From: Intoshia linei | Taxonomy: Eukaryota > Animalia > Orthonectida | Direction: 5' to 3' | DNA: 36,306 nt | Assembly (NCBI GenBank): GCA_001642005.1 | Contig: LWCA01000261.1 | Coordinates: 1-36,306, forward strand | Shown here: in pieces, positions 5,687 through 36,306 of the stretch | Position numbering within the stretch: position 1 is the stretch's first letter | Layout: every line of letters starts with the position of its first letter | Translations under genes and position numbers: made by a program | Notes under the pieces: model-generated | Told to the model about the DNA's origin: nothing | Database searches by the model: none | What the model saw: only the letters and a program-made list of their open reading frames with translations

Positions 5687-5803
5687 ATGTATATTGTAAA
5701 GTTGTAAATTATCGAGTAAATCGGTTTATTTTCATATTTTGTCATTTTTTATAAACTTTACGTAAAATTTAATTTTAAAATAAAGTTACATTTTTTAACG
5801 ACA

Positions 5804-7309
5804 ATGGAAAAAGATTCATTCGAAGGAAAGTTTGAATTTGGAATTTTGTTAATAAGTGGATCATTCAATTTGACCGTATTAAAAGGATGTGCAAAATGTC
5901 ATGGGTTTCATTTAATGAAGAAAAATGAGCCATATTATTTTTGTAACATTTTGCCATTTTCTCAATTTTGCATAGAATTGTGTGACGACGAATGTAATGA
6001 AAAATCTAATGAATTTCGGTACCGTATTGAGAAAATTGAGAAACCAAACTTGATACACATACAAACGGACTCTTACTTTAGTAGACTGGTTAGAAATATG
6101 AATGCAAAAATTGAACATGAAGTGTTCAATAATTATACCGAAATAAAAAATATGAAAGTTGTGACATATGATTATGATACAATTACTACATTATCGAAGA
6201 TGTGTGGTTTTAACAAAAAGTATTTTGTTATGGGTTCTACTGATACCGGGAAATCAACAATGACAAAATATATTGTGAATTGTCTATTAAATATAAATGA
6301 TAAGGTTTATTATATAGATTGTGATATTGGTCAATCTGAATTCTCTACACCCGGGTGTATTTCATTGTTTTGTTTGAAAAAACCAGTATTTGGACCTCCA
6401 TTCTCTCATGTTATCGAAACTGTTGCTTCTTGTACAATTGCAAATAATACGGTTACAAATATTGAAATTAATTCATATTTAGCATGTGTGAATCATTGCT
6501 ATAATCACTATTTGAATCAAAAAGTAAACGATCCATTAGTAGTAAATTGGATGGGCTGGATCCAGGGGCTCGGGTATCAGTTAATGAAGGAAACTATTAA
6601 AATTGTTCGACCCCATTTTGTTGTACAGTTAGATTCTCCAATGAAACATGTCAATATCAACCCTGTAGACACCTTGTCTATTCAAGATTCAAAGTCTAAA
6701 CGTTCTTTTTCGAAAGAATTTACCAATGTTTTAATAAAATCTCCCATTGCATACAATACCGTCAAAACTTATCCAAACCAAAAACTCAGACAACTCCAAT
6801 TTCTAGTTTATTTTTCGAACGTATTTAAGGTGTTCAATGTTGCTCTTTCTTTAAATTATGCTAAACCTTACATGATACACTTTTCAAATATCTTTATTAA
6901 GCTTCACACTAAAGTGCCTCCAGATATGTATTGTGATGTCATAAATGCGAGCGTGGTTAGTTTGTCACATTTAGAAGATAATTGCGATTATACCCATAAT
7001 TATTGCAATATTTCTAAAATGAATATTCTTCAATCCAATACTACCGAAAAATTTGATCATTTAGGCTACGGTATATTATTTTTTATTAGAAATTTAGCTT
7101 CATTTTTAGGTATAATAAGAAACGTTGATTTAATAAACAGAATTATTTTTGTTATTACTCCTTTATCTTCAAAAATTATTTCACAAGTAAATGTCATCAT
7201 ATGTACAAAAATACCACTTTTAACGAATATTCTTAGTTCTCAGGTAATATTAATATTTTGTTTTCTTATCTACAATGCATTGTAGTGTATTTATCCGTTA
7301 CAGGAATAA
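5804..7309 (+). CDS. NOL9: Polynucleotide 5'-hydroxyl kinase NOL9/Grc3 (Clp1 family)
   Basis: P-loop GSTDTGKST, DCDIGQSEF, PLVVNWMGWIQGLG and C-terminal LGYG|IIRNVD...IFVITPL. 39-nt intron 7071-7109, intron 7244-7285 and a probable terminal exon 7286-7309. Confidence 0.9.
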
Positions 7310-8952: not shown

Positions 8953-11285
8953 TTAAATGGGTATAATAGTAGTTTCAAAAGTTTCCATACTGTTTGATAA
9001 CACTCGTGGATCGCCATAGTCATCTCTATACGCTGAAAAAACCATTTTAATTTCAGAGTTTATATACAATCTTCCACTAGACGATTTAACGACTCTAAAA
9101 TAAAAATACATGTAATAATGTATAATTTATTAGTACTTCATATGAAGCAAATGTTTGACATGTCTTTTTTTCCGTCGTTTAAAGTAAATTCGATGTCTAA
9201 TAAAAGAAACATTTTTGCGTTTCAATTCTTTAAAATCGTATGGAACTGAAAATAATTTCACCATTGTATCATTAGGATAAAAAATTGTCTAAATGCAACG
9301 TAAATACTCTGAAACTAAAATTATTACAATTTGTACAAACCCAGATTCAGGTATCATGTATCTTTTTATTTTAGCGGTTCCCTAAATTTAAATAATAACC
9401 GGTACGAAACTAATTACTATTACCAAATAAGGGGACGGAGCGTCCATATAATTTAATTTGAAAAACGATATATCTAGTGGTATTTTTATTAGGTCAGTTT
9501 TAAAATTTCCATGAGCCACAAGTTCACAATAAAAATTTTTCAAATGACCGTATTCCTTGAATCGTCTTTTCAATATACTTTCCTAAAGAGGTAAAATTAC
9601 AATGTAAACAATTAAACACAACCTCAAAGTTTATATAAAAATGTTTTCCTGGTATACTTGCTAAATCAATATTTCTAAATAAAAGAATTAAAAATGTTAA
9701 CTTTTTAATTACTCATTTAGTTCATTGTATGAGGTTTTTGATTTAAAGGTAGTCTAAAAATATTAAATAAATGGTAATTAAATTTATTTAAATAAAGAAA
9801 AATTACTTTTAAACAATTGATAGGTTTATTATTTTCTTTCTTGTCAAGTTTATATTGAGAAAAATGCTTCATCAAGTTTAGTTTTTTATGTTTGTTGATA
9901 TATGTTATTTGCGAACGTAAGAAAACGTTTTTAAGGGTATTCTTTTTTTGGAATATTGGCTCCTTTAATAAATTTGCATTTTTATCGCACACGTCAAAAC
10001 CACAAGGTGAATCAGAACGTGATTCAAGTTGTTTAATGTCTTTATATCGGTTTTTTAAATTGTGAGGTTTAAAGAGGTTACCAGATAATTCCATTTCAAT
10101 ATTATATTTTTGTGAATTTGTTTTTGATTCCAACTTGCGTTCATGTTTTTGACAAACGTAAGTAGTTGACAAGTTACACATTGAGGAATATTTTTTACCT
10201 TCACTATTTAACATGTTTAAATTTTTACGATAGATTTGAGGAGTAAGATTGGAATAGGGCGGAATAACTGTTTGAGAATCTTTATTCTTTTTATATATAC
10301 AGGGTTTATATACAATAGATGTAAAATTATTTTGATCGTGACAGTCGAGGTTGGGGAGTAAGTTGTAGCAATCATGATTTGGTGTAACTTGACTACTTGA
10401 TCCATATTTGTAATTCAAGGCTTTAGAATCACGATGAGAGTAAGCATCTATAATTTGAAGAACAGTAAACATAAAATTTTTAATTTCGGTAATTTTAATA
10501 TTAATGTTTTCATCATAAAATGGCGGGCTAGCTTTTTCGCAACAAGATAGAATGATTGGTTGGACACAAATAAAAGCAGGTAAATGTTTGTATTTTATAA
10601 ACTTTTTATTTACAATTAATTCCATTGACGCGTCCAGTAACATGTCGTCTCCGAAAAGACTTTCCACAAACCAAAATTGTTTGATTCGTTTGAGTGAACT
10701 TTGAAAATTATTTACTTTGGGCGGTTTTACTTGGCAGTCGTCTGCATAGTGTCCATTTTTGGAACTGTACAATTTAAATTTAACGGACGAGACATTTTGC
10801 TGAAACCAATGAGAAAACTCCTTGTCATGAATTACCGAACAAGAATACATGTGTTGGATTTCTTGCATCAAATTGTGTCTTTTCGCCAAATTAGAATTTT
10901 TTGTAACTCCAATGGAAAATTTCCACCTTTCAAGTAAAACTGTATCTTCTTGTTTTTCATTCATAAATTCACACATTGGTATGAAATTTTCATAGACGGC
11001 CGTATTAAAGCAACTTTCTTTTTCATTTGATACACCCTTCTTCAGGCAGTGTATATCTATAAACACGGATCCACATTTGTTTAATAAATTGCTAATATGG
11101 TAGCTTAAATTTCTCAATATTTCGTCATTCAGACTAGAATCGAACATTGATGTTATAAAACCCGGCACATCCACAAACTTTGTAAACTCTGACAAATCCG
11201 CCAGTTCCTCCATACTCTCATCCTCGCAATCATTACTATTGAGTCGATTTGTAATTTGATGTTTCTGTAAATCTAAAAATTTCAT
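8953..11285 (-). CDS. ATOSA: Atos homolog / FAM214-like protein (DUF4210 plus C-terminal chromosome-segregation domain); 5' end may extend further
   Basis: A large exon containing LLERWKFS is followed by short exons spelling INFE|ESILKRRF...KIPLDISFFKLNYMDAPSPYL|GTAKIKRYMIPESGFVQI|TIFYPNDTMVKLFSVPYDFKEL...KHLLHM|..KSSSGRLYINSEIKMVFS. This matches the FAM214 C-terminus (NFEESVL..RF, APSPY, TLFNPNKTVVKMF, SKSGKIYL). Confidence 0.85.
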
Positions 11286-16581: not shown

Positions 16582-19500
16582 ATGCCTAGAATTAATTCTG
16601 ACCACGTCAAGTTATTTAAAAATAGTGGGAAAAGTTTGGTAATTTTTTTGCCACAATTTTTAAATTTTCATCAGGATGTTCGAAAAAGACGGTTAGAAAG
16701 GAGTGTTGAACTGCGTAAACAAAAACGTGATGAACAATTATCGAAACGAAGACAAATTGACGAAAGTGTGTCTAATGATAGTTTATCCGACGTGTCTATT
16801 GTGTCCAGCGAAAAAGTGATTGATTCTATATTTATTTGATAAATAACTAATGCACTGTAAAATTAAGCACAAAGTAAAATTTACACAGTACTGAATCAAA
16901 GTCTAGATGACAATTAATTAATTATATTTACCAGGATGGAATTCAAGCTATAGAAAAATTGTTAATGTCAAATTCTGAAAAAAAAATTTCACAAGGAGCG
17001 CAACTATCACGCCAAATATTGTCCAAAGTAGAATCACCTCTAATACAAGAATTTATAGATCGAGGAATAATGCTTAAATTGGTATCTTTATTGGAATACA
17101 ACAAGTATGTGATTGTAAAAATGTTGATTTCATCTTATTTTAATTAGTGAAACGGTACAGTTTGAATCTGCTTGGGCCTTGACCAATATTGCATCAGGAA
17201 ATTCTGAACAAACACAATGTGTTGTGAAAGCTGGAGCATTGACAAAATTGATAAACCTGTTAAAATCAAACAATATGATTTTATGTGAACAAGCTATCTG
17301 GGCAATTGGAAATATTTCTGGAGACGGCTCTCAAATGCGAGATTTAGTTATTAATTTAGATGTCATTTCTTACTTTGAAAACTTTACTACTAAAAAAATG
17401 TCACTAACCTTTTGTAGAACTTTAAGTTGGGCATTATCAAATTTGTGTCGAAATAAAAATCCTTTTCCACCTGAATGGGCTGTCAAAAAATTGATAAATT
17501 TGATGCACACATTAATTGAAATTAATGATTCCAATGTGCATGGTGATATTTGCTGGGCTGTATCATATTTGACTGATGGACCTGATGAGCGTATTAAGGT
17601 TGTTATGTCTAGTGGTAACTTTTATAATTTAGTCAGTGCCGAGCTTAGCATATTCGAAGCCCCTCTTGGGTGCCTTCATCAAAATCTATTTAAAATTTTT
17701 GTAAAAATGGGCCTCATTTTTCCAACTCGAACAATAACTATTTTCTTTAATATTAATTATTTTGTGTGATAAATTTAAAATGTCACGATCGATAGTCTTG
17801 GAGATGTTGCTAGGGGTTATTTTACATTTTCGGTGGCTCGAGGTTTGTAGGTTGGGCTCGCAATCTAGTTAATAACTGTACAACTAATAAGTGATTCCAA
17901 CCATTGTAGTTGTATTTTGGTAATCCTTTCATCAAATTCGACTGAACCGTATTTTATATTCCGTATATACCGTTTTTATATTCTCAGTCGATGCCTTTTT
18001 TAGACTTAAAACATTTTACGACCCTTTAAATTTGTATTAAAACATGTCTGCGAGAATAATGGTGTCATATAAGATTTTTTGTTGGTTTTTTCATTTCAAA
18101 TCTTACCGTCCCTGATTTGGAACCTAATTCAGCCACTCTGATACCTGTTCAGTCGCGTAACCTTATTTTCAAATTATCTTGGTTTGTAATATTTAAAATC
18201 AAACCAAATTCCCCCTGGTCTGATATTGAATTCTTGTATATTTTAATTATATTGTATACTAAAATGGAGGGGTGATTCATTTCAATCACAAATTATGATA
18301 GGGATCCGTTAAAACTTGATTATAATTATGACAAACTTTAGGGTTCCTAGGAAAATATTTTTCAATTTGTAAAGCCTAGGCTTAAATGGGTGATTTCATA
18401 GATGGTTGGAAGTCACTTCTCTAATATATTTAATTTTTTATATTTGTAACATCGTTAGGGTTAATACCTAAAATTGTTAATTTGTTCAATCATTACAACA
18501 TTCTTTCAATTTTGACACCAATTATTCGAGTTGTAGGAAATATTGTTTCTGGCAATGACGAGCATACAAGAGTAATTAATAATTTAATATTTATGTAATA
18601 TTTTTCATTATAGATGATTTTGAATTATAATATTTTGTCTAAATTTCCAAATATTTTACGAGATCATAACAAATCTCTTAGTAAAGAGTTGATGTGGACA
18701 GTTTCTAATATTGCAGCCGGTAAACCTGACCAAATCGAGCAAATTATTATTTCCAAATTAACTAAACCTATAATAAAATGCTTTAAAAATGTAATTTTTT
18801 TAAATTGAATTAAATCGGAACTGTTGTGAAAAGCTACCACTTTTTTCAAAATTTAAAATGTTCAGTTTTCCTATTAAAACGAATTTTATCTAGGCAAAAA
18901 GTAAATTTTCGACCAAAAAACCGAACCATGGGCTCTGAATACAATTTGAAAAAAAATTTTTTTCATTAAAATACCTTTTTAACGATTAAATTGTGTTTTA
19001 TATATATTACATCTATAAAAAATGAATAATTTTCTGGTACCACAAATCGCCCACCATTGTTTATTATTAATTAAAAACGTATCAACTAGAAAATCTATGT
19101 AATACGTTTTAGATGAAGTGAAGGATTCGCAGACTCTAATTTCTTAATGAAAAATTTGTATTTAACTTGCTTTTTTAGTTAATTTTTCTCAGGTTCCCTC
19201 AAAGTTTTTTCAGTCTCAACGTTCTGATTGGTGATATAAATCAATAATCCCGAAGATAAGTATATCAATTGTACTCTTTTTCTATTTATTATACCTACAA
19301 CGTGTAAGATGTACTATTATTTCAGAATGATTACTGAAATTAAATCTCATTTGACTAATCAGTTAGAAACTATGTATTTACCCTACTCTTGAAGTTTAGG
19401 TAAATAAATTTCGAATTTTGGTATAATAATTAGTAAACTTTAAGAGGAACAGTGAGTATTTATGAAACAATTAATTTTGCGTCAATTGAACCTTGATTAA

Positions 19501-20502
19501 ACCTCGTGTTTTACATTCTTGCTTATTTTAGGGAAATTATAGAACAAAAAACGAATGTATTTGGATAATAAATAACATTAGTACATGTGGAACCATCGCT
19601 CAATTGCAAAAGTTTATTGATCGAGGGGTTTTATATTCTCTCAAATCTTGCTTTGAAATTGCTGATGACACAATGACTCTATTGCTTATTGATACAATTT
19701 ATGCTCTTTTAAAGGTACATATATTTAAAAACATTTATTTACATGAGTATTTTATGCGTATTTGTTTTATTGGGGCATCAGGTGTCCATTTTTTTTCTAC
19801 TGACTACTATATTATTTTATTATTGAAATTTATCTTTGAAATGGGTCACTACGAAAACGTTTGGTTACTTTGATCTAAATATTGTTTATAAATTAAAATT
19901 TAATAAAAATGTCTATTTATAGAACTGTAGTGCTAATAATTTTTTAAATGAAATATGTTTGATGGTCGAAGAAAGTGGTTTACTCGATTTGATAGAGGAT
20001 TTGCAACATTCTGAACACCCAGATATTTATAAATCCGTCTTAAAACTAATTCAAAGTTTTTTCTATGTAAGTTATATTAATTTATTATTTTATACTGTAG
20101 ACAAATATATATATTTTATTTTAACTCAGTGAAATTTTTTAAATTCAGTCAATACTTTTTTCTAAAAAGAGTAAATATTATTGCAATGATCTCATTTTAG
20201 TTCTTCAAAGTAACATTTTTGGTAGTAAATACTGATTTTGTATTTATATCAATTTTCTGAGAAATTGAGAAAGCTTTTAATCATTTATTAAATTTAATTT
20301 TCTAAATTAGTATAATAGTAGTTCACTACTATTACACCATTATATTATAATTTTAAATTATTGATGTAATTATTTTTCAAAATATAAATTACTAATTAAT
20401 TATAATTATATAATGACATCAAAATTAGAATTATAAATATTAGTTTCGTGCGCAAATTTGTATTACACATTAAAATATAATATTTAGGAAGAATCAGACT
20501 AA
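16582..20502 (+). CDS. KPNA2: Importin subunit alpha (alpha-2/KPNA2/pendulin-like), about 9 exons
   Basis: IBB domain ([27 protein letters not shown]) and ARM repeats ([78 protein letters not shown]), ending [23 protein letters not shown]...FFY|EESD*. The NLCRNKNP motif points to the alpha-2 clade. Confidence 0.92.
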
Positions 20503-22580: not shown

Positions 22581-23105
22581 TTATTTTTCTGTTCTTCTTT
22601 TTTTTCTTTTGATAGTGAATCGGGGTACATACCTCTGACTTACACAATTTTGAGTGGGTTTAACTTTTGATAGATGATGCGATTGTGGAATGAATTTATT
22701 TTTCGGCATGTACTTCGATTTTTGAATGTATTTATTATTCAGCATGCACTCCGATGGTTTAATGTATTTACTTTTCGGCGTGTACTTCGATTTTTGAATG
22801 TATTTATTTTTCGGCATGCACTCCGATGGTTTAATATATCTACTTTTCGGCGTGTACTCCGATGGTTTAATGTATCTACTTTTCGGCGTGTACTTCGATT
22901 TTTGAATGTATTTATTTTTCGGCGTGTACTCCGATGGTTTAATGTATCTACTTTTCGGCATGTACTTTGATTGTTCACAGAAGTTATCTTCCGATAAATA
23001 ATTCGATTGAGCGTATTCACAGTCCGATTGTGGAAATGAGTCATCTTCCGGTGAAGAATCCGATTGTTGATGTGATAAATTGATATCGTTAATATGTTCG
23101 AACAT
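22581..23105 (-). CDS. Orphan 174-aa protein: acidic N-terminus, eight 12-aa Tyr/Lys/Pro repeats, basic C-terminal NLS-like tail
   Basis: Single ORF from ATG 23105 to TAA 22581 that stays open in non-repetitive sequence on both sides of the repeat. Repeats are KYTPKSRYIKPS / EYTPKNKYIQKS; the tail is KRKKRR. Confidence 0.6.
   Translation of the reverse strand: MFEHINDINLSHQQSDSSPEDDSFPQSDCEYAQSNYLSEDNFCEQSKYMPKSRYIKPSEYTPKNKYIQKSKYTPKSRYIKPSEYTPKSRYIKPSECMPKNKYIQKSKYTPKSKYIKPSECMLNNKYIQKSKYMPKNKFIPQSHHLSKVKPTQNCVSQRYVPRFTIKRKKRRTEK
22680..22968. repeat. Tandem minisatellite, 36-bp unit built from 18-bp sub-units, about 8 copies
   Basis: Units such as ttttcggcgtgtactccgatggtttaatgtatctac and ttttcggcgtgtacttcgatttttgaatgtatttat alternate. 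Confidence 0.9.
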
Positions 23106-23334
23106 TATTTAAACTCTTCAGAACTTCTGACCAGTGTATATGTAGTTTAATCTCGGTTTGTAATACAAACTTTGTATTAAATTTTATTTAAATCAAAATT
23201 ATTATTATTAATAATTATTAGTTAGGTAATTACAACGAATAATGGCTTTGAATTTAAGGGATACGAAAGGGCATTATAAAATATAGTTAAATACGTTTTG
23301 GCTTAATAACAATGTTTGTTGACAGAACAGTTAA

Positions 23335-24848: not shown

Positions 24849-25666
24849 TTGAACTCATGTAACAATTGGGAACAGTCCATCTCATCAAAAATTATTTTTT
24901 GATCCTCCAATTTTAACAATTTATTTATAAAAATAAATTTTTTTACAAATTTAAATGCCAATACCTTGCGTGATGGCTTCACAAACTACGCATTTCTAAT
25001 GTTTTTATAAATACATAAACTTGTAAAAGTACCGTTTTATCGAGACGAACGCAATTCATATATACTCCATTATAAAAATTTAAATTTAAAAGGTTATCCA
25101 ATGTGTGAAATGCGCTATGAAGGAAATTAAAATATTACACGTAATATAACCTGGTCACTATTTTGAATGCTTCCATACAACATATAGCTAAATGTGATTT
25201 TAATGATTAAACAATACTTGAAATTTACCTGAAATTGAACAATTTGTAGTAATTACAGCAGGTATAATGTTGGATAATATCTCTAAGGCTTATATATAAT
25301 TGTCAGTTAAAAAATATACCTTGAATTTTATTTGTGTCAACATTATATTCAATATTCCATTTTTTTGCATGCTGGATAGCCTCATTCAATATCCATTTTA
25401 AATGCTTTTCATTAGTTGTAGAAAAATCTTCTAAAATAAAATAATAGTCGACTGAAATACAAAATTACCTTCAAATGGTATTACTTTTTCCCATAATACG
25501 ATTTTAGCGTATAAAACGCAATGGCCAAATGATTTTGGAAAGTTACATATGGTACACACAGGATATGTAACTTTAGAAGAAAATAAGTCTATTGTACATT
25601 CCAAACAAGCAGTTAAACTGGGAAATATTACTCTCACGCTACCCATTAACCCTTCTGTTCCTCCAT
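24849..25666 (-). CDS. UBA3: NEDD8-activating enzyme E1 catalytic subunit UBA3 (internal exons only; 5' exons not in the window)
   Basis: DGGTEGLMGSVRVIFPSLTACLECTIDLF...YPVCTICNFPKSFGHCVLYAK..LW (catalytic Cys), then KHLKWI, NIIPAVITTN, ICCMEAFKIVT and KCVVC. The Arg in GSVRV matches the UBA3 selectivity Arg (Gln in UBA1). Confidence 0.88.
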
Positions 25667-26148
25667 CTATATTTGAAAAATATAAGTATTTTTTAATAAT
25701 AATTAAAATAAGTGCGAATGTTTTTTACTTCTGGAAAGCTGTATATAAATACTATTGTGCATTTATATAAACACTAGTGTACATTCATATATGGACCATT
25801 TTAACTTTTGATTGTATTGCACGGCATTATATAATTAGATTTATAATATTATTTAGGATTGGACTGTTTTTACTTTATTTTTAATATTATACACACATTC
25901 TGTTTAATAAATTAAAAAAATGGGATAACAATTGTTTTTAAAATTCTTTACACAAATAGTACAATAAAATTAAGATGGAAGAATTCACTTTAAAGTTAAA
26001 AGAAATGTGATATGAAGGTTACATCTGAAACAAGTTTGGGAACCACTCCTTTAAAGAGTTAATAATAGTGAATAGTAGGATTTTAAGTTAGATTTTCAAC
26101 GTGAATTTATTTTTTAGTAAAATAAAAATGTGCCCTTGCAGAGCTAGG

Positions 26149-27128: not shown

Positions 27129-28344
27129 TTCTTTTTCTATAATCAGTTGTTTGTCAAATTCAGAATTAGAAATTTTGTCAGAGGCCTTCTTTTCAGTCAT
27201 TAATGCTAAAATATCTTTTACTTCAGAAATCTAAATACAGCGGAGATTATTTATAGTGATTCAATTTTAAGTACACAACAAATCAATTGCACTATTCTTA
27301 CTTATTAATATTAATATATAAAGTTACTAGGTTGACTGTTTTGTACTTGGTACAAAAAGCATTTTAGTACAAACTATGTAATTAAAATTTCTGGAACTGT
27401 CAGTTTTCTAAATAGTTACTCCAAATGAATATACAAGCACACATTGTGACAAACTCTTACTTCATATAAATAAGGATTACCTGTTTTTCTGAAGAAACTT
27501 TTTCTTTTGAATTTTTTACAAAATTATACCAATTGATGAGACCACTAATAAAAAAAATACTTCTGGTTTTATCTAAATATTTATTATAACGTCAATAATC
27601 ATGAGCATAAGAAAATGCAGTCCGCGTAACATCAGTGATACTTATTAGTTTGTATATCAAGGAACCCTTTCTATTGTTTCATAAAAGTAGACTACCATAC
27701 GCAGAGCCGTGGAGAACCAACAATGGGACGAGCCAGATGAAAACACATTTATAAAATATCAGTGTTCTGAAAACAGACAATGAGTAGCATTGATATACAA
27801 AGAATGCAAAAATATAATATAAATACTAGGTTGTAGAATGTCTCTAAGTCCAATATGAATTGGAGTGCCAGTATATAAGCAAAATTTATTAAAAAAGTAG
27901 TTTCTGTATAAAAATAAATAAATGTACAATGAAATATACATCAGCGTTTTCTAATATTTAAATACTTTATACCAACTTGGAACGTGTTGCAGACGTCTAT
28001 TATGCAATAACATTTGGAAAACGCTGATGTATACAATATATTACAATCGTTTTTGAACAGTTTGGATGTGTTCAAAGGATTCAATCTAAAAAATATAATT
28101 AATAATAATGCTTATTAATGATTACATCGTCGAATTCAATAAAGACATTGAACAATTTACAGATATCGGTATATAAAGTGCTCCACTTTTTTTTCTACAA
28201 AGTATTTCATTTTAAATGGTAAAAATTTACTGTGCCATTAGTAAAGTCTGTTTTAACGAATTTGATATTAAAATGAACATTAATAAAATCACATAATTCT
28301 TTAATAGGTAGTAATGGGAAAGAAAGTAATTTCTTCTTTGCCAT
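27129..28344 (-). CDS. NUF2: Kinetochore protein NUF2 (CH domain and start of the coiled coil; 3' part missing)
   Basis: ATG 28344. Spliced exons read MAKKKLLSFPLLPIKELCDFI...KWSTLYTDICKLF...IGLRDILQPNKTRSIFFISGLINWYNFVK, matching the NUF2 motifs SFPxL and DLLxPxxKRT..xLSxxINF. Confidence 0.75.
27937..28031. mobile_element. Tc1/mariner-type MITE in a NUF2 intron
   Basis: TA|TACATCAGCGTTTTCTAAT ... ATTTGGAAAACGCTGATGTA|TA: ~19-bp TIRs with TA flanks. Confidence 0.6.
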
Positions 28345-28588: not shown

Positions 28589-31500
28589 TTACAATTGAAC
28601 AACATGTGTCAAACTATATAAATCAATAGGACTGCTGGTGTCAATCTAAAAATATAAATTAGTACAGAGATGAAATGTATAATATAATATTATGAAACCT
28701 AACCATGGACCCACCAGAAATGTTTAATTTTAAAATTTATTTAAAAAATCTTTGAGAACCGCTAGTCTACTTTATAAAAAATGTACCTTAATATTTCTAT
28801 TATTCACACTCCTTCTGTATGTCAAAATTGCAAAAGAAACTAACCCAGCACCACCACTTACAATTAAAAGATATGCAATGTATTCTAGGTAAGAAACTAT
28901 GAACACAATTTGAGCCACCATAACTGCAGTTTTGGTATCAATGCAATATCTCTAAATTTATTTAATAAACCAATAAATAAATACTATACCTCTTGTAAAC
29001 TATATATTGGAAAAGCATAATCGCTCAATAATGAATGGTTAATTTTTTCATTTCCACTATTTTTATATTAAAAAAAAAACAAAAAAAAATGTACTTGTAA
29101 AGAACATAATGTGTATTTCGTATCATCAGACTAGCTGTAAATTGCTTTTGACTACACAAGACTTTACCGGTGACCTATAAATGAATATATACCACAATTA
29201 CGAGTCAATTACCGGCTCCAATTTTAACCACGATTCCGTTTTTTCAAAAGGTTTGATACTAGATTTTCTTAAAAATTTGTCTACTTGAGAATATTGAGGT
29301 ATTGAATATACAAATTCTCCCACTAAATAAATTGTATTATAAAAAATTAATAAAGCAATATTTTAAGGAGATATTATGACTATAGGGAAGTGCTTTCCAA
29401 TAGGTAAGTCGGAGATGAATTCTAGATGTGTCGCCAACATTTGACCACTTTGTATTATCGAAAAATGACAAATTTTTTATTAATACATTTGTAATTATAT
29501 GATGCCATTATTTTTATTCGAAAAAAATCGATTTTATAATCAGATTTTAAAATTATAATTTTTTTCATTATCTTATACTGACGTGTAGCGACTATTTTTT
29601 TAATTGAAATGTATGTAGTCAAGAAACTGATTAGAAAGCACTGATAGGGTCGATAAATCATGTAAATGAAGGAATATTACTTTTACACGGCATTAAATTA
29701 AAATTTCCAGTTTTTGTACAACAAAAATTGACATTTGTTTTATCATTAATGTCTCCATTTAAACAATTTTGTTTACAAAAATCTACATTAATACGATTCT
29801 TTAATGGGTTTTGATAAATATTAGGTGAAATTTTCTAAAAAATAACAATATAATAATAAATTTTTTGTTTTTACGTATTGATAAGTGTGAATTCCTCGAA
29901 CTAAAGCAGTTTCATCAAATTGGACAGAAATGGATCTACACAATTCAGGATCAAAAATGTACAAATCTCTAGTTTTATCAACAAATGGATTCCAACCACT
30001 TCCATCTGTTCCATTCAACATGTTACTGTTTTCGCTATTCCAATAATTCAATTGTCTAAATTAAAATAATAACTTAATTAACAAATAATAGTAATTGTCG
30101 TATAGTAAATATAGTATACTAAGTTGACTGTTATGTACTACGTACAAACAGGACTTAAGCTCTGCCGATGGCACATTTTTATTATACTTAAAAAATAAAT
30201 TCACGTTAAAAATGTTACACAGATGTTAGTATACAACGTTACAATGAACAATAATAATCTCATCAATGCATATAAGCGTAAATTTTCCATTTCACCAATA
30301 ACGAATAGCTGCATGCCAACTCACATTTGCAGTGTATGGTATATGTATATTAATAAGCCAAACACTTTACACTTTGTAAATCTACGAATTTGGTCTTAAC
30401 CTAAAAATCATCAAAATGATTGCTATTTTTGCTCCTTTTTTATTGCATTATTTATGTATGTATACGACGGCGGGTGGTTCGTATGACACGAGTTCGGCAC
30501 GTTCGGTACGCTACTGCTGATCTCCAAGCGAACACGAAGCATGTAAGCACAACATGAAGAATGTGTAAGCAGATTACTAATCTATATGAAGATAGTAGTG
30601 CCGCTTCAGAAGAAACTAAGTTCCTAATAACCCTTGGTAATGTTTTTCCGACGTTTAGGCACAAAGTATTATCTACAGCCCGTTTTCTACATTTAATCGA
30701 GTGTGAAAATAATGGCATGTATGCTCCCATTATATCGATTTTCGAAAATGCAGTTAATGATACACACATCATGGAAAATATAGACACGACATCCATACTC
30801 CAGCAGTATGTGAACACACAACACAGGGTTTAAGTACTCGAGCATGTAGCTTATGCCTTAAACATGCTCACATTCCTAGACCCTATGGATAACAACGAGA
30901 TCGAGTACTTGACTTATATCTATTTACCTGACATACTATGCGGTTCGACGTGCTACGGTGAAGGCACTGACATGACGGAAAAGCTTATGAAAGACCGAAA
31001 ACGTATCGAGTTTAATTTCGCTATTGGATGTGAGAGTGGCTATATTTCACTATGGGAAGATTACAAATCTTGGTTAATTTTTCCAACAGTAATGGAAACA
31101 AAATTAAACACGTATAACATAGAGGTGAAGAGGAAATGTGGGTGTGAAATTTTGTTAGAATTTTCAAAGGTGCGTACAGATAATCCGCAACGTGAAAGCG
31201 GCACCACAAGTCCCCTTTACCATGAAAATAAATACTTAGTTTTGAAAACAGTTTTAACATTCTTTAAAGGTGATTTATGTCTATTATTTGACATAAAAAG
31301 AACCCAAGTTATCAAAACTTGAATAAATATGTGGAGCGTTTTGTTGTATGTCTCGGAATTCTAGATCCGAAATTCAAAGTTATAATAAACAATATAATAT
31401 ATAAATATAATATAATATAAATATATAATAAATAAAAACTCAAAATCAAAAATTTAGCCCATTTTTTTAATTTAAAAAATCATAAACTGCATATTTCAAG

Positions 31501-34500
31501 TTAAAGCAGATGAATATAGCAACCACATAAACTCTTTAGAGAGCGAAACAAATCGAAGATTTATGGATTTTAAGTTGATGGAAAAAGAATTCAATTTATT
31601 ATCTTGCCCATTTTCAGTTGACGTTTCAACCGTTCCAGATAATCTTCAACTTGAGCTGATTGTACTTGGTCGCAATATTTCATTACCATTTATACCTCAA
31701 TCTTTTACAAATCCCAATCAAATACGGAAATATTCAGTACATACTGCTAAAAATCATAGAAAACCATACAACAATCGGTTATTTGCATTCTTAGACTCGT
31801 TACAGATACCAAAAAACTTAAAAAAATTAAAAATTGTGGTTTCGATAACATCGAAAAATCTATTCTTCAATTGCTTCGTATGTGTATAGAAAAGAACATA
31901 CCTGTTTCTGGTCGACAGTTACAAGATCAATAATTATCGTTTGCTAAAAAAACGAAATTCATAACTTTAGGGCATCTTAGGGATGATTTCATAACTTTAA
32001 GTCACGAAATGATGTACTTAATAAAAAATTATGCGGTGAGGCTGCCAGCGTAGATAATACCATATGTGAAAATTGGCGAAAAAACCAACAAAATGTTTTT
32101 AAAAGTTATCGTAATGAAGATATTTTTAATACCGATGAAACGAGTTTATACTATAAAGCAACCCCAAGGCATACGTTAGCTTTCAAAAACGAAAAAATTA
32201 GTGGAATCAATATATTTTAATGTTATTACTAGTCAATCTTTGGAAAAGAAAATAATTATATACTATTGGCATTGGAATACAAAGAGACTAAGTGTTGATG
32301 ATTTTTTAGTTCCTATACGGCTTGTGGTACCAGAAAAATTGGTTGAGAATCTGTATTCTTATGCTTTAACATTACTTAAAGGAAAATTCACTGTTAAGAA
32401 TTTGATGATCGCTGCTGCCACATTTAATAGTAGAGAAATTGTTATTGGTACCGCTGTAAAACAATTAGAAAGAGTACCAGCTGATGAGTTGCAAAAGATA
32501 GTTCATTCTGATTGGATGGCTGTGTATGTCAGTTCTTTTGAATGTTCTAAGACTTTATCGACATTGGTCAAATCAGAAGAAAAATATCGAAATTACTGTG
32601 ATAAAACGATATTCGGGAAATTGTTGGCTACTATTTTTTTCACCAAAATGCTGTGTCAAGAAACATAATACTGTAAATGCAATAGTCGCCGCCCAAATAA
32701 ATGAAAGTTTAGTTGATGAGTGTGGTGCTACTGCTGATATGAAAAATTATGTTTCATCGTGCCTGTCTAAATTCTTATGTAATATAAAAAAATTTGTAAA
32801 TCCCGTAGAGAATATAGCATATCAATGGATAGGTTCTGCCGATTCATCACGATAGAGGAGGAACTGGATATGGTCGCAGCTGAATATGTTGGACCGGACA
32901 AATGTACTGTTAATAGTACATTGATCGATTCATTTCCTCCCGATTATATAAGTAATGTATTGACATATTCTGTTCCTAGCGCAGATGGTGAGATAAGAAA
33001 ACACCCATTTTCCGATGACGCAGCGCCAATTTGATTGGAACAGAAAAATTACCACTTTTAATGATTGGAAAATCAAAAAATCCAAGGTGCTTTGCTGAAT
33101 TCGACAAAAATAATTTGCCAATATTGTATAAAAATTATAAAAAAGATTGGATGACTGCGATCTTATTTGAAGAGTGGCTGCACATAATTGATAAAAAATT
33201 TCATAAAGAAAACCGCCAAATACTGTTAGTAATTGACAAATGTACGGGCCATTGTAAAACTTTAATAGAACCACTAGACTCAATAACACTTTTATTTCTT
33301 CCACCTAATACAACTTGTGCTTTACAGCCCATGAATATGGGGATTATCAAAAATATATAACATTCAAGCTAGTTTATATTATATTACAAATTATATAGCA
33401 CCTTGAATAATTATAGGAAACCAAATCCCCGATTGCCGTTCCTTTTTTACCACTCCATACTTCATATCTTTCAGATATTGAATTATTTCGTAAATTTTTC
33501 TAAAAATATTATATATAGAGCCATTCATAGAGCATAATGATTAGGTTAATGAAGATTTTTCGGATGCTCTTAAAGAAGTTTTGATCATTGTGTATACTTT
33601 ATCGTTTTATTTAACCCTTAAAATTATATGAAATTTAAACAATTGTTATGTACTGTTGCTTAACGACTTTAGAGCATCCTATTTAAATGGCTCTAATTAT
33701 AAATTAACCCTTTCACTGTCTGTTTATTCTATACCATACACAGCAATTTCAATTCACACGTCTGTGTATTCTATGATATACACAGCATAATTTTGAAAAA
33801 CTTTATTTTTTTATTTTCATACATTTTCACATAGGTAATTTAAAAATAATACAAGTTTAAATTAAAAAAGAAATTTCAGACGTGTGGTGATGCATCATAA
33901 AATAGTATTAGACAGTGTATAGTACAGACAGTACTATACACTACGAAAAAAGTTCTTAGTTCTTACTAGGACCACAATAGTCAAAAACTGACAAAATTTC
34001 TGACTGAAAAGATTTTAACCGTATTACGGCATATCAACCATAAAATGGGCCTTTGAAAAAAAAATACCATTAGTTACATATATTAAATAGAAATTACATC
34101 AATTAATCCATGAACTTCAGGGTACGTCGTATACATTTGTTTATTTAATTTGACCAATGTTTCATCAGAATATCCCCATATATAATCGTGTATGTTAACG
34201 GTTCTGAAAAGGTTCAATTTGAAAGGGTAATCAAACAACATTTCAATTGAAGATCTCGTATGGCGATCAGTACTGTTTGTTATAGATAATATAGCCTATA
34301 TAAAAAATTGTTATGCATGGATAAAAAATTATACCCCGCCAACTAAATTTATCACAGTAACCAAATCATATTGACTAGCATATGACATTTCTTCATTAAA
34401 ATAGTAGGTATATTTTTCGTTGTAACTGACTGTGCCATTACAATTGTAGCTAATATCAACTTTTTCTTTGTGCTTTCTAAAAAAACAGATTTATCCAGTA

Positions 34501-35557
34501 ATAATAAATACTTTAATACCTATAAACAATCGGTCCTATTTCGTCAATAATTGGTTCACTTCCGGTAAAAACATAAGACACATTGGTGACGTTATATATC
34601 CAAAATGATATAAAAGATTCCATAGGCTTACTCCACAAATCATTGCTTAAATTTTCAGTGATGACAAAACGCTACATTTTAAAATAATAAAGTCTCATCT
34701 TATCACACAGCATTCATAAACCAACATTGTTTTAAAAAATTGAAAATATACAATAAAACTTTAATTGAAACTAAGTTTGATTTAATAACTAACGTGACCG
34801 GATTTAATGGGTCTTTCGTATTAGTATAAAATAATTGAGTTGTAATAAAATACTATTTTATAACAATTGAAAATAAATTATCGATACAATTAAAAAATAC
34901 GTAAGTGTGTATTTTTGTCTTGTCTATTTGTACAATAAAAAACCTTTTGCCATCAACGATGTATATTGTTAACGAAACATATATTAAAGAAACAATTGAT
35001 AATACTTATTAAATCATGACGATTTAATTTAAAATGAACTTGATATTTATTAGATCATTGAAAAAACTGGATATTGTTGGCGACGAGTGATCTACAAAGT
35101 ACAATGTACTTCATAACCATAGTGTCCTTTAGTACCGAAACCCTTACAGACAAATTTGTTGTAAAATGGTGGCTTCATTTTTCCAAATTAATTCAAAAGC
35201 ATTAAATAATTATACTCTTGAATATCATAATTATTTTTTGTGTTAAATTTAAAATGTCAAATCAAGAGTCTATAAAAGGTGTTTAGGGACTATGACACTA
35301 TACATAGTTTGTGAAAAATTATATTGAGACTATTTTTCATTTTCGTGACCTCAAGCTTGGTAGGTCGGTTCTGGTATCTTTTTTTGATTAAAGGACAAAT
35401 TGCATATTAAAAATTGATTAAATATTACCTCATCAAATTCTGAAAATTGAATATACATCAATAAAGACATTCCAATTAAAATTAAGAGAAAGAGCGATGA
35501 AATGATGATTAAATTTTTTACATTAAATATCCTTTTTGTATTTTTAACTTTTTTCAT
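28589..35557 (-). CDS. CD36/SCARB (LIMP-2-like) class B scavenger receptor, complete, about 12 exons
   Basis: Exons: 35429-35557 (N-terminal TM), 34520-34671 (FWIYNVTN..EIGPIVYR), 34335-34476 (NGTVSY), 34098-34295 (YIWGYSD), 33402-33499 (RNNSISERYEVWSG), 29875-30055 (LNYWNSE..NGTDG..CRS), 29681-29834, then LEP|VTG, FPI, the C-terminal TM and stop at 28589. Splice phases match, including the phase-2 intron 30056-33401. Confidence 0.9.
30460..31381 (+). pseudogene. Endogenous viral element 1: decayed methyltransferase/guanylyltransferase domain of an alpha-like (virga-like) +ssRNA virus replicase
   Basis: ORFs 30561-30833 and 30864-31322 share one frame broken by stops. Motifs parallel the tobamovirus 126K protein: YD(A)GG (frameshifted) vs YDIGG; HVRYATADLQANTKH vs HCCMPNLDVRDIMRH; LEHVAYAL...YIYLPDIL vs LHSIYDI...FHFSENLL; IEFNFAIGCESGYISLWEDYKSWL vs [29 protein letters not shown]..EFSKV vs YMKEF..KFSRI. 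Intronless and visibly more GC/CpG-rich than its flanks. Confidence 0.75.
31500..31665 (+). pseudogene. hAT transposase C-terminal fragment (GTF2IRD2-like)
   Basis: ADEYSNHINSLESETNRRFMDFKLMEKEFNLLSCPFSVDVSTVPDNLQLELI fits the RFxDF...PFSVDV..P..LQLELI motif. Confidence 0.75.
31810..32205 (+). mobile_element. pogo/Tigger transposase, 5' half (CENP-B HTH and first catalytic Asp)
   Basis: IEKSILQ...KNIPVSGRQLQ, FRAS*G*FHNFKSRN, LCGEAASVD and EDIFNTDETSLYYKATPRHTLAFKNEKISG. Contains stops and frameshifts. Confidence 0.88.
32206..33022 (+). pseudogene. Endogenous viral element 2: C-terminal (Y/iceberg) part of a virga/nege-like virus capping domain, frameshifted
   Basis: KIIIYYWHW...PIRLVVPEKLVENLYSYALTLLKGKFTVKNLMIAAATFNSREIVIG...VYVSSFECSKTL parallels tobamovirus [44 protein letters not shown] and, from recall, negevirus ORF1. 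Three overlapping ORFs are joined by frameshifts at ~32635 and ~32825. Confidence 0.75.
33023..33360 (+). mobile_element. pogo/Tigger transposase, 3' half (DDE_1 domain), truncated
   Basis: ANLIGTEKLPLLMIGKSKNPRCF...KDWMT..LFEEWL...RQILLVIDKC...FLPPNTTCALQPMNMGII; the third catalytic Asp has become Asn. Confidence 0.92.
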
Positions 35558-36306
35558 ATTAAAACTGCAAATTTTAATAATTTAAAATTGATTTGAGAAA
35601 TTAAATTAAAATGAAATGATGGAAATAAAAACAATTTGAAACAATACATTTCAATTATGGTACATTATGTATTGTTTAACTATGGATTTAAATAAACAAT
35701 TAATTGTTTCAACATAATTGTTGATTACTTTGTTGTCAATTGTACAATGTACATTTTATTAGATATCATGTAGATTTATTATGTGCATATGACTGCTAAG
35801 GTTAAACATGTAATTTTTTTGTGTATTTTTGACTATGGACAAGAAATCTTGTCCTTCATAGTGTTTACTTTAATTTTTTTCAAGTTTCCAAAAGCCAAGT
35901 ATATAATGCTAAGTTTCAAACAATGTATTTGTTCTTTAGAATTGTAAATTGGTCACGGTTTATGCAATTATTTTTAATTTTTATCGATATTATACAATAT
36001 TTTTAATAAACAATAATAACATTTAATTTCGCTCAAATGTTGAGAAAATTATTTTTTGACAGTGGATGTCACCTACATGGCCTATGTAAATAAAAGCTTC
36101 AAAATGGAGTTTAATTTAAATTTAAAAAATAGATAATGTAGAAAACATTTCATTCATCACAGCGCTAATATTTTAAATTTGAAATAATTAACGCATAACA
36201 ACAAATACTAATTATTAAAAATAAAAATAATTAAAACCAATTAAATCAAAGAAAAATATAACTCGGTTCGAGATTGCTTGCTATTAAAAGTTATAAAATT
36301 ATGACA

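Follow-up and report, generated by a model that had tools for sequence, protein, structure and literature searches.

On contig LWCA01000261.1 of the orthonectid Intoshia linei (assembly GCA_001642005.1; positions 1 to 36,306 of the forward strand, the 36,306 nt that we call the window), a gene of the CD36/SCARB family on the minus strand contains an intron of 3,346 nt, which holds replicase fragments of two RNA viruses among remnants of DNA transposons. The gene, the intron and its contents are laid out as follows.

28772..35557, minus strand: CD36/SCARB-family host gene, modelled with 11 coding exons, 496 aa
35557-35429, 34671-34520, 34476-34335, 34295-34098, 33499-33402, 30055-29875, minus strand: exons 1-6 of this gene
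29834-29681, 29322-29213, 29174-29095, 29056-28990, 28951-28772, minus strand: exons 7-11 of this gene
30056..33401, minus strand: GT-AG intron of this gene, 3,346 nt, phase 2
30103..30213, no strand assigned: short non-coding dispersed repeat, probably of the miniature inverted-repeat transposable element type
30843..31244, plus strand: viral piece 1, a remote alpha-like (Martellivirales-type) methyltransferase fragment
31490..31660, plus strand: probable hAT (FAM200/GTF2IRD2-like) transposase scrap, adjoining Tigger (a lead from Atlas)
31660..32205, plus strand: N-terminal part of a Tigger/pogo transposase, broken (HTH_Tnp_Tc5, E=0.005)
32206..33020, plus strand: viral piece 2, a nege-like virus replicase fragment comprising the methyltransferase region's C-terminal part and what follows it
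33022..33360, plus strand: Tigger DDE domain, truncated at about position 125 of the 177 of the profile (DDE_1, E=4e-26)

When the 11 exons are joined, the gene model reads as an uninterrupted frame of 496 aa. Four of the seven exons tested match Pfam CD36 (PF01130), and these matches flank the 3,346-nt intron on both sides. Both ends of the model are hydrophobic by eye, and the PF01130 ectodomain lies between these two membrane segments, an arrangement that places the protein in the CD36/SCARB family. An AATAAA motif follows about 30 nt beyond the stop codon. The ten introns measure 38, 38, 38, 39, 40, 43, 358, 598, 757 and 3346 nt. Six of the ten thus fall at 38-43 nt, which agrees with the first-pass annotation of this DNA, where a phase-2 intron of 3,346 nt with GT..AG ends at 30056-33401 had been singled out in a gene with several introns of about 40 nt.

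Six sequencing runs contain part of the region, none of them recorded as RNA. Contigs of four runs from two studies were mapped to positions 31441-36300, to the right of viral piece 1. Three of the runs (X2, X3 and X5) appear to be spliced-RNA-like, to judge from joints at the upstream introns with CT..AC ends. The four introns upstream of the long one are observed as RNA joints in these contigs; the first exon and the joints downstream of the long intron are predicted from the model. Contigs of X2 and X3 cease to match exactly at 33402 and extend for another 791 and 840 letters, and for X5 the extension is 775 letters by subtraction. Between 30055 and the stop codon the gene model has 772 nt, which is comparable with these extensions of 775-840 letters. 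The intron is therefore spliced in the contigs of three of the four mapped runs, with a minor unspliced fraction possible. This reading draws on the joints and the lengths, and not on the lack of intron cover in X3 and X5. Of the predicted splice junction 33402/30055, the donor at 33402 is observed in use, whereas the acceptor at 30055 is suggested by length and frame, because the contig mapping was confined to 31441-36300.

Further upstream, positions 34944-35050 are joined to 34671 in the RNA-type contigs of X3 and X5, with a stop in the CD36 frame directly before the joint, and no mapped contig shows a joint to the predicted first exon (35557-35429), which encodes the N-terminal membrane segment. 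The segment 34944-35050 may provide an alternative start, for a form of the protein that lacks the first membrane anchor, or act as a poison exon.

At the DNA level, a contig of the DNA-type run X1 covering 32177-33312 comprises viral piece 2 and the right part of Tigger, and a further contig of this run (33285-33733) spans the end of Tigger, the splice donor and the exon with 0 differences from the window. The integration of viral piece 2 in host DNA is accordingly seen in one contig that links it to Tigger and in the next, which extends to the host exon. The integration of viral piece 1 is taken from the assembly. A plus-strand database protein, A3Q56_02648 (382 aa; 30561-32668), is stitched together from both viral pieces and transposon scraps. 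No plus-strand joint backing it is present among the contig joints in 31441-36300, and for this reason the protein is likely a false gene model, an annotation artefact.

Viral piece 2 has no stop in its first 153 codons, and its 3' part is broken. It has 59 non-self protein matches at E<=0.001 (60 including the gene model of the window itself), mostly replicases of 1,800-2,900 aa, the best being that of Wuhan house centipede virus 1 (E=5e-29, 47% identity). The fragment aligns with replicase residues ~345-605, or roughly 260 residues out of some 2,370, and each of its top ten matches, when scanned, carried helicase and RdRP_2 domains. Apart from the centipede virus, the named relatives are nege-like viruses of aphids, thrips and whitefly, and identity to the ten closest replicases is 40-45% over the core. 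In a quick tree built on 160 columns and 55 of 57 rows (two rows without a BLAST match were dropped), the fragment falls inside a nege-like group of 24 rows with a Shimodaira-Hasegawa-like approximate likelihood ratio (SH-aLRT) of 95, as sister to the centipede/aphid virus group with a weak value of 82. Best matches and tree position together identify it as a nege-like replicase, with the exact sister group weakly placed. A search for a close virus confirmed none of 23 pattern matches in viral contigs and none of 223 in metagenome contigs; it reaches close relatives only. The relatives of viral piece 2 also include a protein of Strongyloides stercoralis (P0047, "Alphavirus-like MT domain-containing"), a likely viral fossil of nege/virga-like type in that nematode.

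The similarity of viral piece 1 to known replicases is far lower. Pfam Vmethyltransf is matched at E=0.04, and hhalign aligns the fragment to replicase residues 240-344 at E=2.6e-4. Against a profile built from the N-termini of 46 replicases, it scores 16.8 bits, a value reached by none of 2000 shuffles (maximum 4.4). We regard it from these comparisons as a genuine yet remote methyltransferase. The frame extends back to 30558 with one stop, and for 30558-30830 no tool returned homology support. No closer relatives were found in PDB sequences, viral contigs, phages or 15 relatives of the centipede-virus methyltransferase, and a word search of longer proteins returned the window's own model only (one of 101 candidates). 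A single-sequence fold was unusable (predicted local distance difference test score 35).

The end of piece 1 near replicase residue 344 and the start of piece 2 near 350 suggested a single virus split by transposons. This was ruled out by identity, which is 15-27% to replicases for piece 1 versus 24-45% for piece 2, and by leave-out scoring, in which piece 1 reached 21 bits versus 77-149 for all 46 left-out viruses and piece 2 reached 156, inside the range of 98-173 of the left-out viruses. Relative to the nege-like viruses, viral piece 1 is thus more distant in the methyltransferase than viral piece 2 is in the region that follows. Decay is not the cause of its low score, as there are no stops in its 134 codons. 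On sequence grounds the two pieces come from two different viruses, in line with the two replicase fragments originally described. Even so, they occupy nearly adjoining parts of the replicase (profile positions 227-366 and 346-604).

The split Tigger transposase of the first description is likewise supported, by the HTH_Tnp_Tc5 and DDE_1 matches on either side of viral piece 2. The truncated DDE domain ends about 40 nt from the splice donor, and other Tigger copies continue past 33354. The 5' end of Tigger was not found in the intron, nor does a matching inverted pair flank the element. Tigger-related contigs pile at about 31660-32195 in four runs, and the Tigger-related sequence in RNA-type runs has approximately 87-93% identity. 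In one related contig (X3) position 32195 is followed by 33139 with 64 letters between them, versus 943 in the window, and the virus is lacking; viral piece 2 was therefore added to the Tigger copy in the window.

The hAT transposase fragment also claimed for the intron fared less well. Its 55 codons contain no stop, and Atlas points to a FAM200/GTF2IRD2-like transposase (score 0.92, carried by 72% of the cluster), a lead below the recognition threshold; neither Pfam and PDB nor the word search returned a match. We take the motif likeness of 31490-31660 to be that of a hAT element. A frame of 30 codons at 31292-31381 on the plus strand carries a motif that is presumably of the Ac/hobo-type hAT; as a possible fifth co-oriented scrap it has no support in Atlas or Pfam. 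The repeat at 30103-30213 has matches of 78-89% at 606-694, 26092-26145 and 27312-27367, and Rfam gave no match in 29800-33700. Repeats also lie at 33620-33900 and 35150-35330, inside the 598-nt and 757-nt introns of the CD36 gene, with up to 38 contigs piling at one spot; the latter repeat has copies at 2620-2675 and 17693-17798.

All supported pieces in the intron code on the plus strand, antisense to the minus-strand CD36 gene, and transcription of the gene necessarily passes through them in antisense, as the first-pass annotation had stated. It had counted four co-oriented pieces. The supported ones do lie on the plus strand, but the hAT scrap is a lead, and the orientation is not beyond chance: four of four in antisense gives p=0.0625 (one-sided) or 0.125 (two-sided) under the assumption of independent pieces; a small sample was also the accompanying caveat. 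Independence is itself doubtful, with the virus inside Tigger and a single insertion event possible. Of the 111 listed frames of the window, 85 were scanned and gave one transposon remnant (FLYWCH, 1337-1534), too few for an orientation control.

We interpret the locus, with a probability of roughly 0.6, as a spliced-out intron in which transposon fragments and DNA copied from two RNA viruses accumulated step by step and more or less neutrally. Tigger, along with further DNA transposons, would have inserted into a short intron, and viral RNA would have been turned into DNA by an enzyme of a host retroelement, likely one with long terminal repeats (LTR). This viral DNA may then have repaired a break inside Tigger by the gap-filling route reported for Pack-TIRs, in which capture inside elements with terminal inverted repeats (TIR), Tigger included, is documented (PMC8277862, as far as its available text goes). 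Subsequent deletions could have removed the element ends and left internal coding pieces adjoining, a load that the gene would tolerate since splicing still removes the intron. The absence of both Tigger ends and the broken 3' part of viral piece 2 count in favour of such a pile-up. Repeat-driven intron growth appears to be routine in the CD36 gene because three other introns are enlarged (358, 598 and 757 nt), two of them with contig-piling repeats. The accessible part of PMC7943196 gives about 42% repeats for the genome, with 8% DNA transposons, 1.3% LTR elements and 0.02% long interspersed nuclear elements in the column that we read as that of the species itself; the "compact-genome" host of the first description is thus small, yet repeat-rich. 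The antisense orientation is likely a product of small numbers and of the loss of forward-facing inserts that truncate the host mRNA. Negative selection is known to leave intronic elements with an antisense bias (PMC1794541, in the portion available), and, as such a filter would predict, AATAAA occurs seven times on the cargo-coding strand of the intron versus twice on the transcribed strand.

Several observations weigh against a neutral origin. Two unrelated RNA-virus pieces within 2.5 kb are improbable by independent chance unless the genome is rich in such pieces, all intron pieces lie on one strand, and both viral cores are free of stops (0 of 134 and 0 of 153 codons), which implies that they are young or preserved. 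Splice-like motifs show no strand deficit (donors 11 versus 11, acceptors 4 versus 6), so that of the earlier caveat, a filter against poly(A) and splice signals, only the first half fits, and the survival argument is left with the poly(A) signals, a small count. Finally, Intoshia linei has three PAZ-PIWI proteins and a Dicer according to the text available of PMC7943196, where the clade of these proteins is not stated and the alignment file does not include the species.

These proteins, together with the presence of two different viruses and of transposons within 2.5 kb in antisense to a transcribed gene, are what would be expected if CD36 pre-mRNA or the excised intron fed a Piwi or Dicer pathway directed against two viruses and two transposon families, the locus being maintained for this function. 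We consider this improbable, and similarly improbable the wider proposal that the intron of an ordinary protein-coding gene acts as a small inherited archive against viruses and transposons in a highly reduced spiralian parasite, outside the arthropods and without a dedicated cluster. A possible target exists in the Tigger-related sequence of the RNA-type runs, and run X2 contains a 169-nt contig of viral piece 2, which may represent either strand and be of DNA or RNA origin. The model for such a function are endogenous viral elements of non-retroviral origin (nrEVEs) of mosquitoes: 53% and 26% of the nrEVEs in Aedes lie in clusters of Piwi-interacting RNAs (piRNAs), mostly in antisense, and some of these clusters are genic (bioRxiv 10.1101/2022.08.22.504762, in the text available, as for the cluster figures below); in insects, nrEVEs commonly give rise to piRNA-like reads (PMC12810003, in its accessible part). 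Against this stand an orientation that is not significant and the splicing of the cargo out of the CD36 mRNA. The locus of 3.3 kb is also small compared to the 25 core clusters of Aedes, which span about 1.9 Mb, and many of the mosquito clusters that trap nrEVEs are read-through transcripts downstream of genes. Endoparasites including Orthonectida have reduced Tudor sets, and several parasites have lost Piwi (PMC12147562, available portion); a eukaryotic RNA-dependent RNA polymerase (RdRP) is absent from the species in the tally accessible in PMC7943196.

The single orientation would be accounted for if reverse transcriptase had switched among sense RNAs in the cytoplasm (two viral plus-strand genomes and the mRNAs of Tigger and hAT) and the chimeric cDNA had been inserted once. 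Co-orientation would then arise by construction, and the four of four would amount to a single coin toss. We regard this one-step origin as unlikely, although it is the most credible of the alternatives. It finds support in the supported pieces being internal coding fragments on one strand with no element end found, in the adjoining of hAT and Tigger near 31660, and in the succession Tigger-virus-Tigger, which resembles a switch out and back; it also explains two neighbouring viruses without selection. However, the scanned intron frames yielded no retroelement sequence, the unequal decay among the pieces suggests different ages, AT-rich non-coding DNA lies between viral piece 1 and the hAT scrap, and a deletion of element ends would look alike. 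We also have to consider that the viral pieces may not be true neighbours and that part of the intron was mis-joined through repeat copies in a short-read assembly. No listed contig spans the whole stretch, and the mapping excluded the left part with viral piece 1. The two X1 contigs overlap by just 28 letters, within Tigger, the first of them reaches only 29 letters to the left of the joint between Tigger and virus and shows 8 letter differences and 2 gaps relative to the window, and X1, which is the best of the DNA runs, possibly supplied the data for the assembly itself. Nevertheless, the joint from virus to Tigger near 33020 lies within a single DNA contig with hundreds of letters on each side, and the end of Tigger, the donor and the exon are covered without differences by the other. 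Contig depths of 16, 11.5 and 12.5 are comparable to those of the unique stretches of the gene (11 and 10.8), and splice sites and reading frame are intact across the intron. An artefact of this kind is therefore the least probable explanation, and we retain the neutral, stepwise growth of the intron.

Elsewhere in the window, at 1337-1802 on the plus strand, a FLYWCH zinc finger (E=1.5e-8) is followed by a further frame, and we take that frame to resemble a remnant of a Mutator-like transposase. A minus-strand frame of 175 codons at 22584-23108 consists of 36-nt tandem repeats and has no Pfam match. Neighbouring genes recognised by Pfam between 4173 and 25724 are a weakly matched RanBP1-like gene, a NOL9/CLP1 kinase (5720-7285), a PF13889 gene near 8956-11285, importin alpha (16582-20129) and a ThiF-family gene (25431-25724).

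Among known systems, the locus is reminiscent of the piRNA clusters in which arthropods trap nrEVEs, with which it shares fragments of several viruses and transposon remnants, oriented in antisense to transcription from a host gene. Those clusters are large, read-through or genic, with piRNAs demonstrated, whereas the locus of Intoshia linei measures 3.3 kb, lies in a spliced intron and is known from its sequence; the viral pieces here neighbour DNA transposons, and the host is an orthonectid rather than an arthropod. With Pack-TIRs (PMC8277862, to the extent available) it shares foreign sequence internal to a Tigger/TcMariner element, of which other copies lack it. The filler, however, is RNA-virus sequence rather than a host duplicate, and terminal inverted repeats and target duplication were not found; with both terminal repeats absent, no complete Pack-TIR is present. 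The nege-like viruses Wuhan house centipede virus 1, those of aphids and Loreto virus resemble viral piece 2 in their replicase, but viral piece 2 is a broken DNA fossil without polymerase or helicase part, and its named close relatives are from land arthropods. RNA-virus sequence in the same genome has been noted before, as viral-family RdRP genes in the Intoshia linei proteome (PMC6396948). These are complete polymerase domains elsewhere, and the accessible text of that paper does not give locus, orientation or clustering.

The mixture of nrEVEs with transposon remnants is already known, and a spiralian host for nege-like or other Martellivirales viruses has precedent in flatworms (PMC10269781; bioRxiv 10.1101/2021.12.15.472606; both as far as accessible). 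What is new is that an orthonectid carries a nege-like viral fossil and that two viruses occur within 2.5 kb. We found no prior description of the locus in the literature searched for the species together with Piwi, piRNA or endogenous virus, a search outside whose scope lay most subscription papers, including the genome paper of the species. It can be regarded as secure that two viruses, one nege-like and a second, remoter one of alpha-like type, entered the germ line of an orthonectid. Should small RNAs be found from the intron, a spiralian parasite and an intronic design would be added to the range of immune memory based on nrEVEs.

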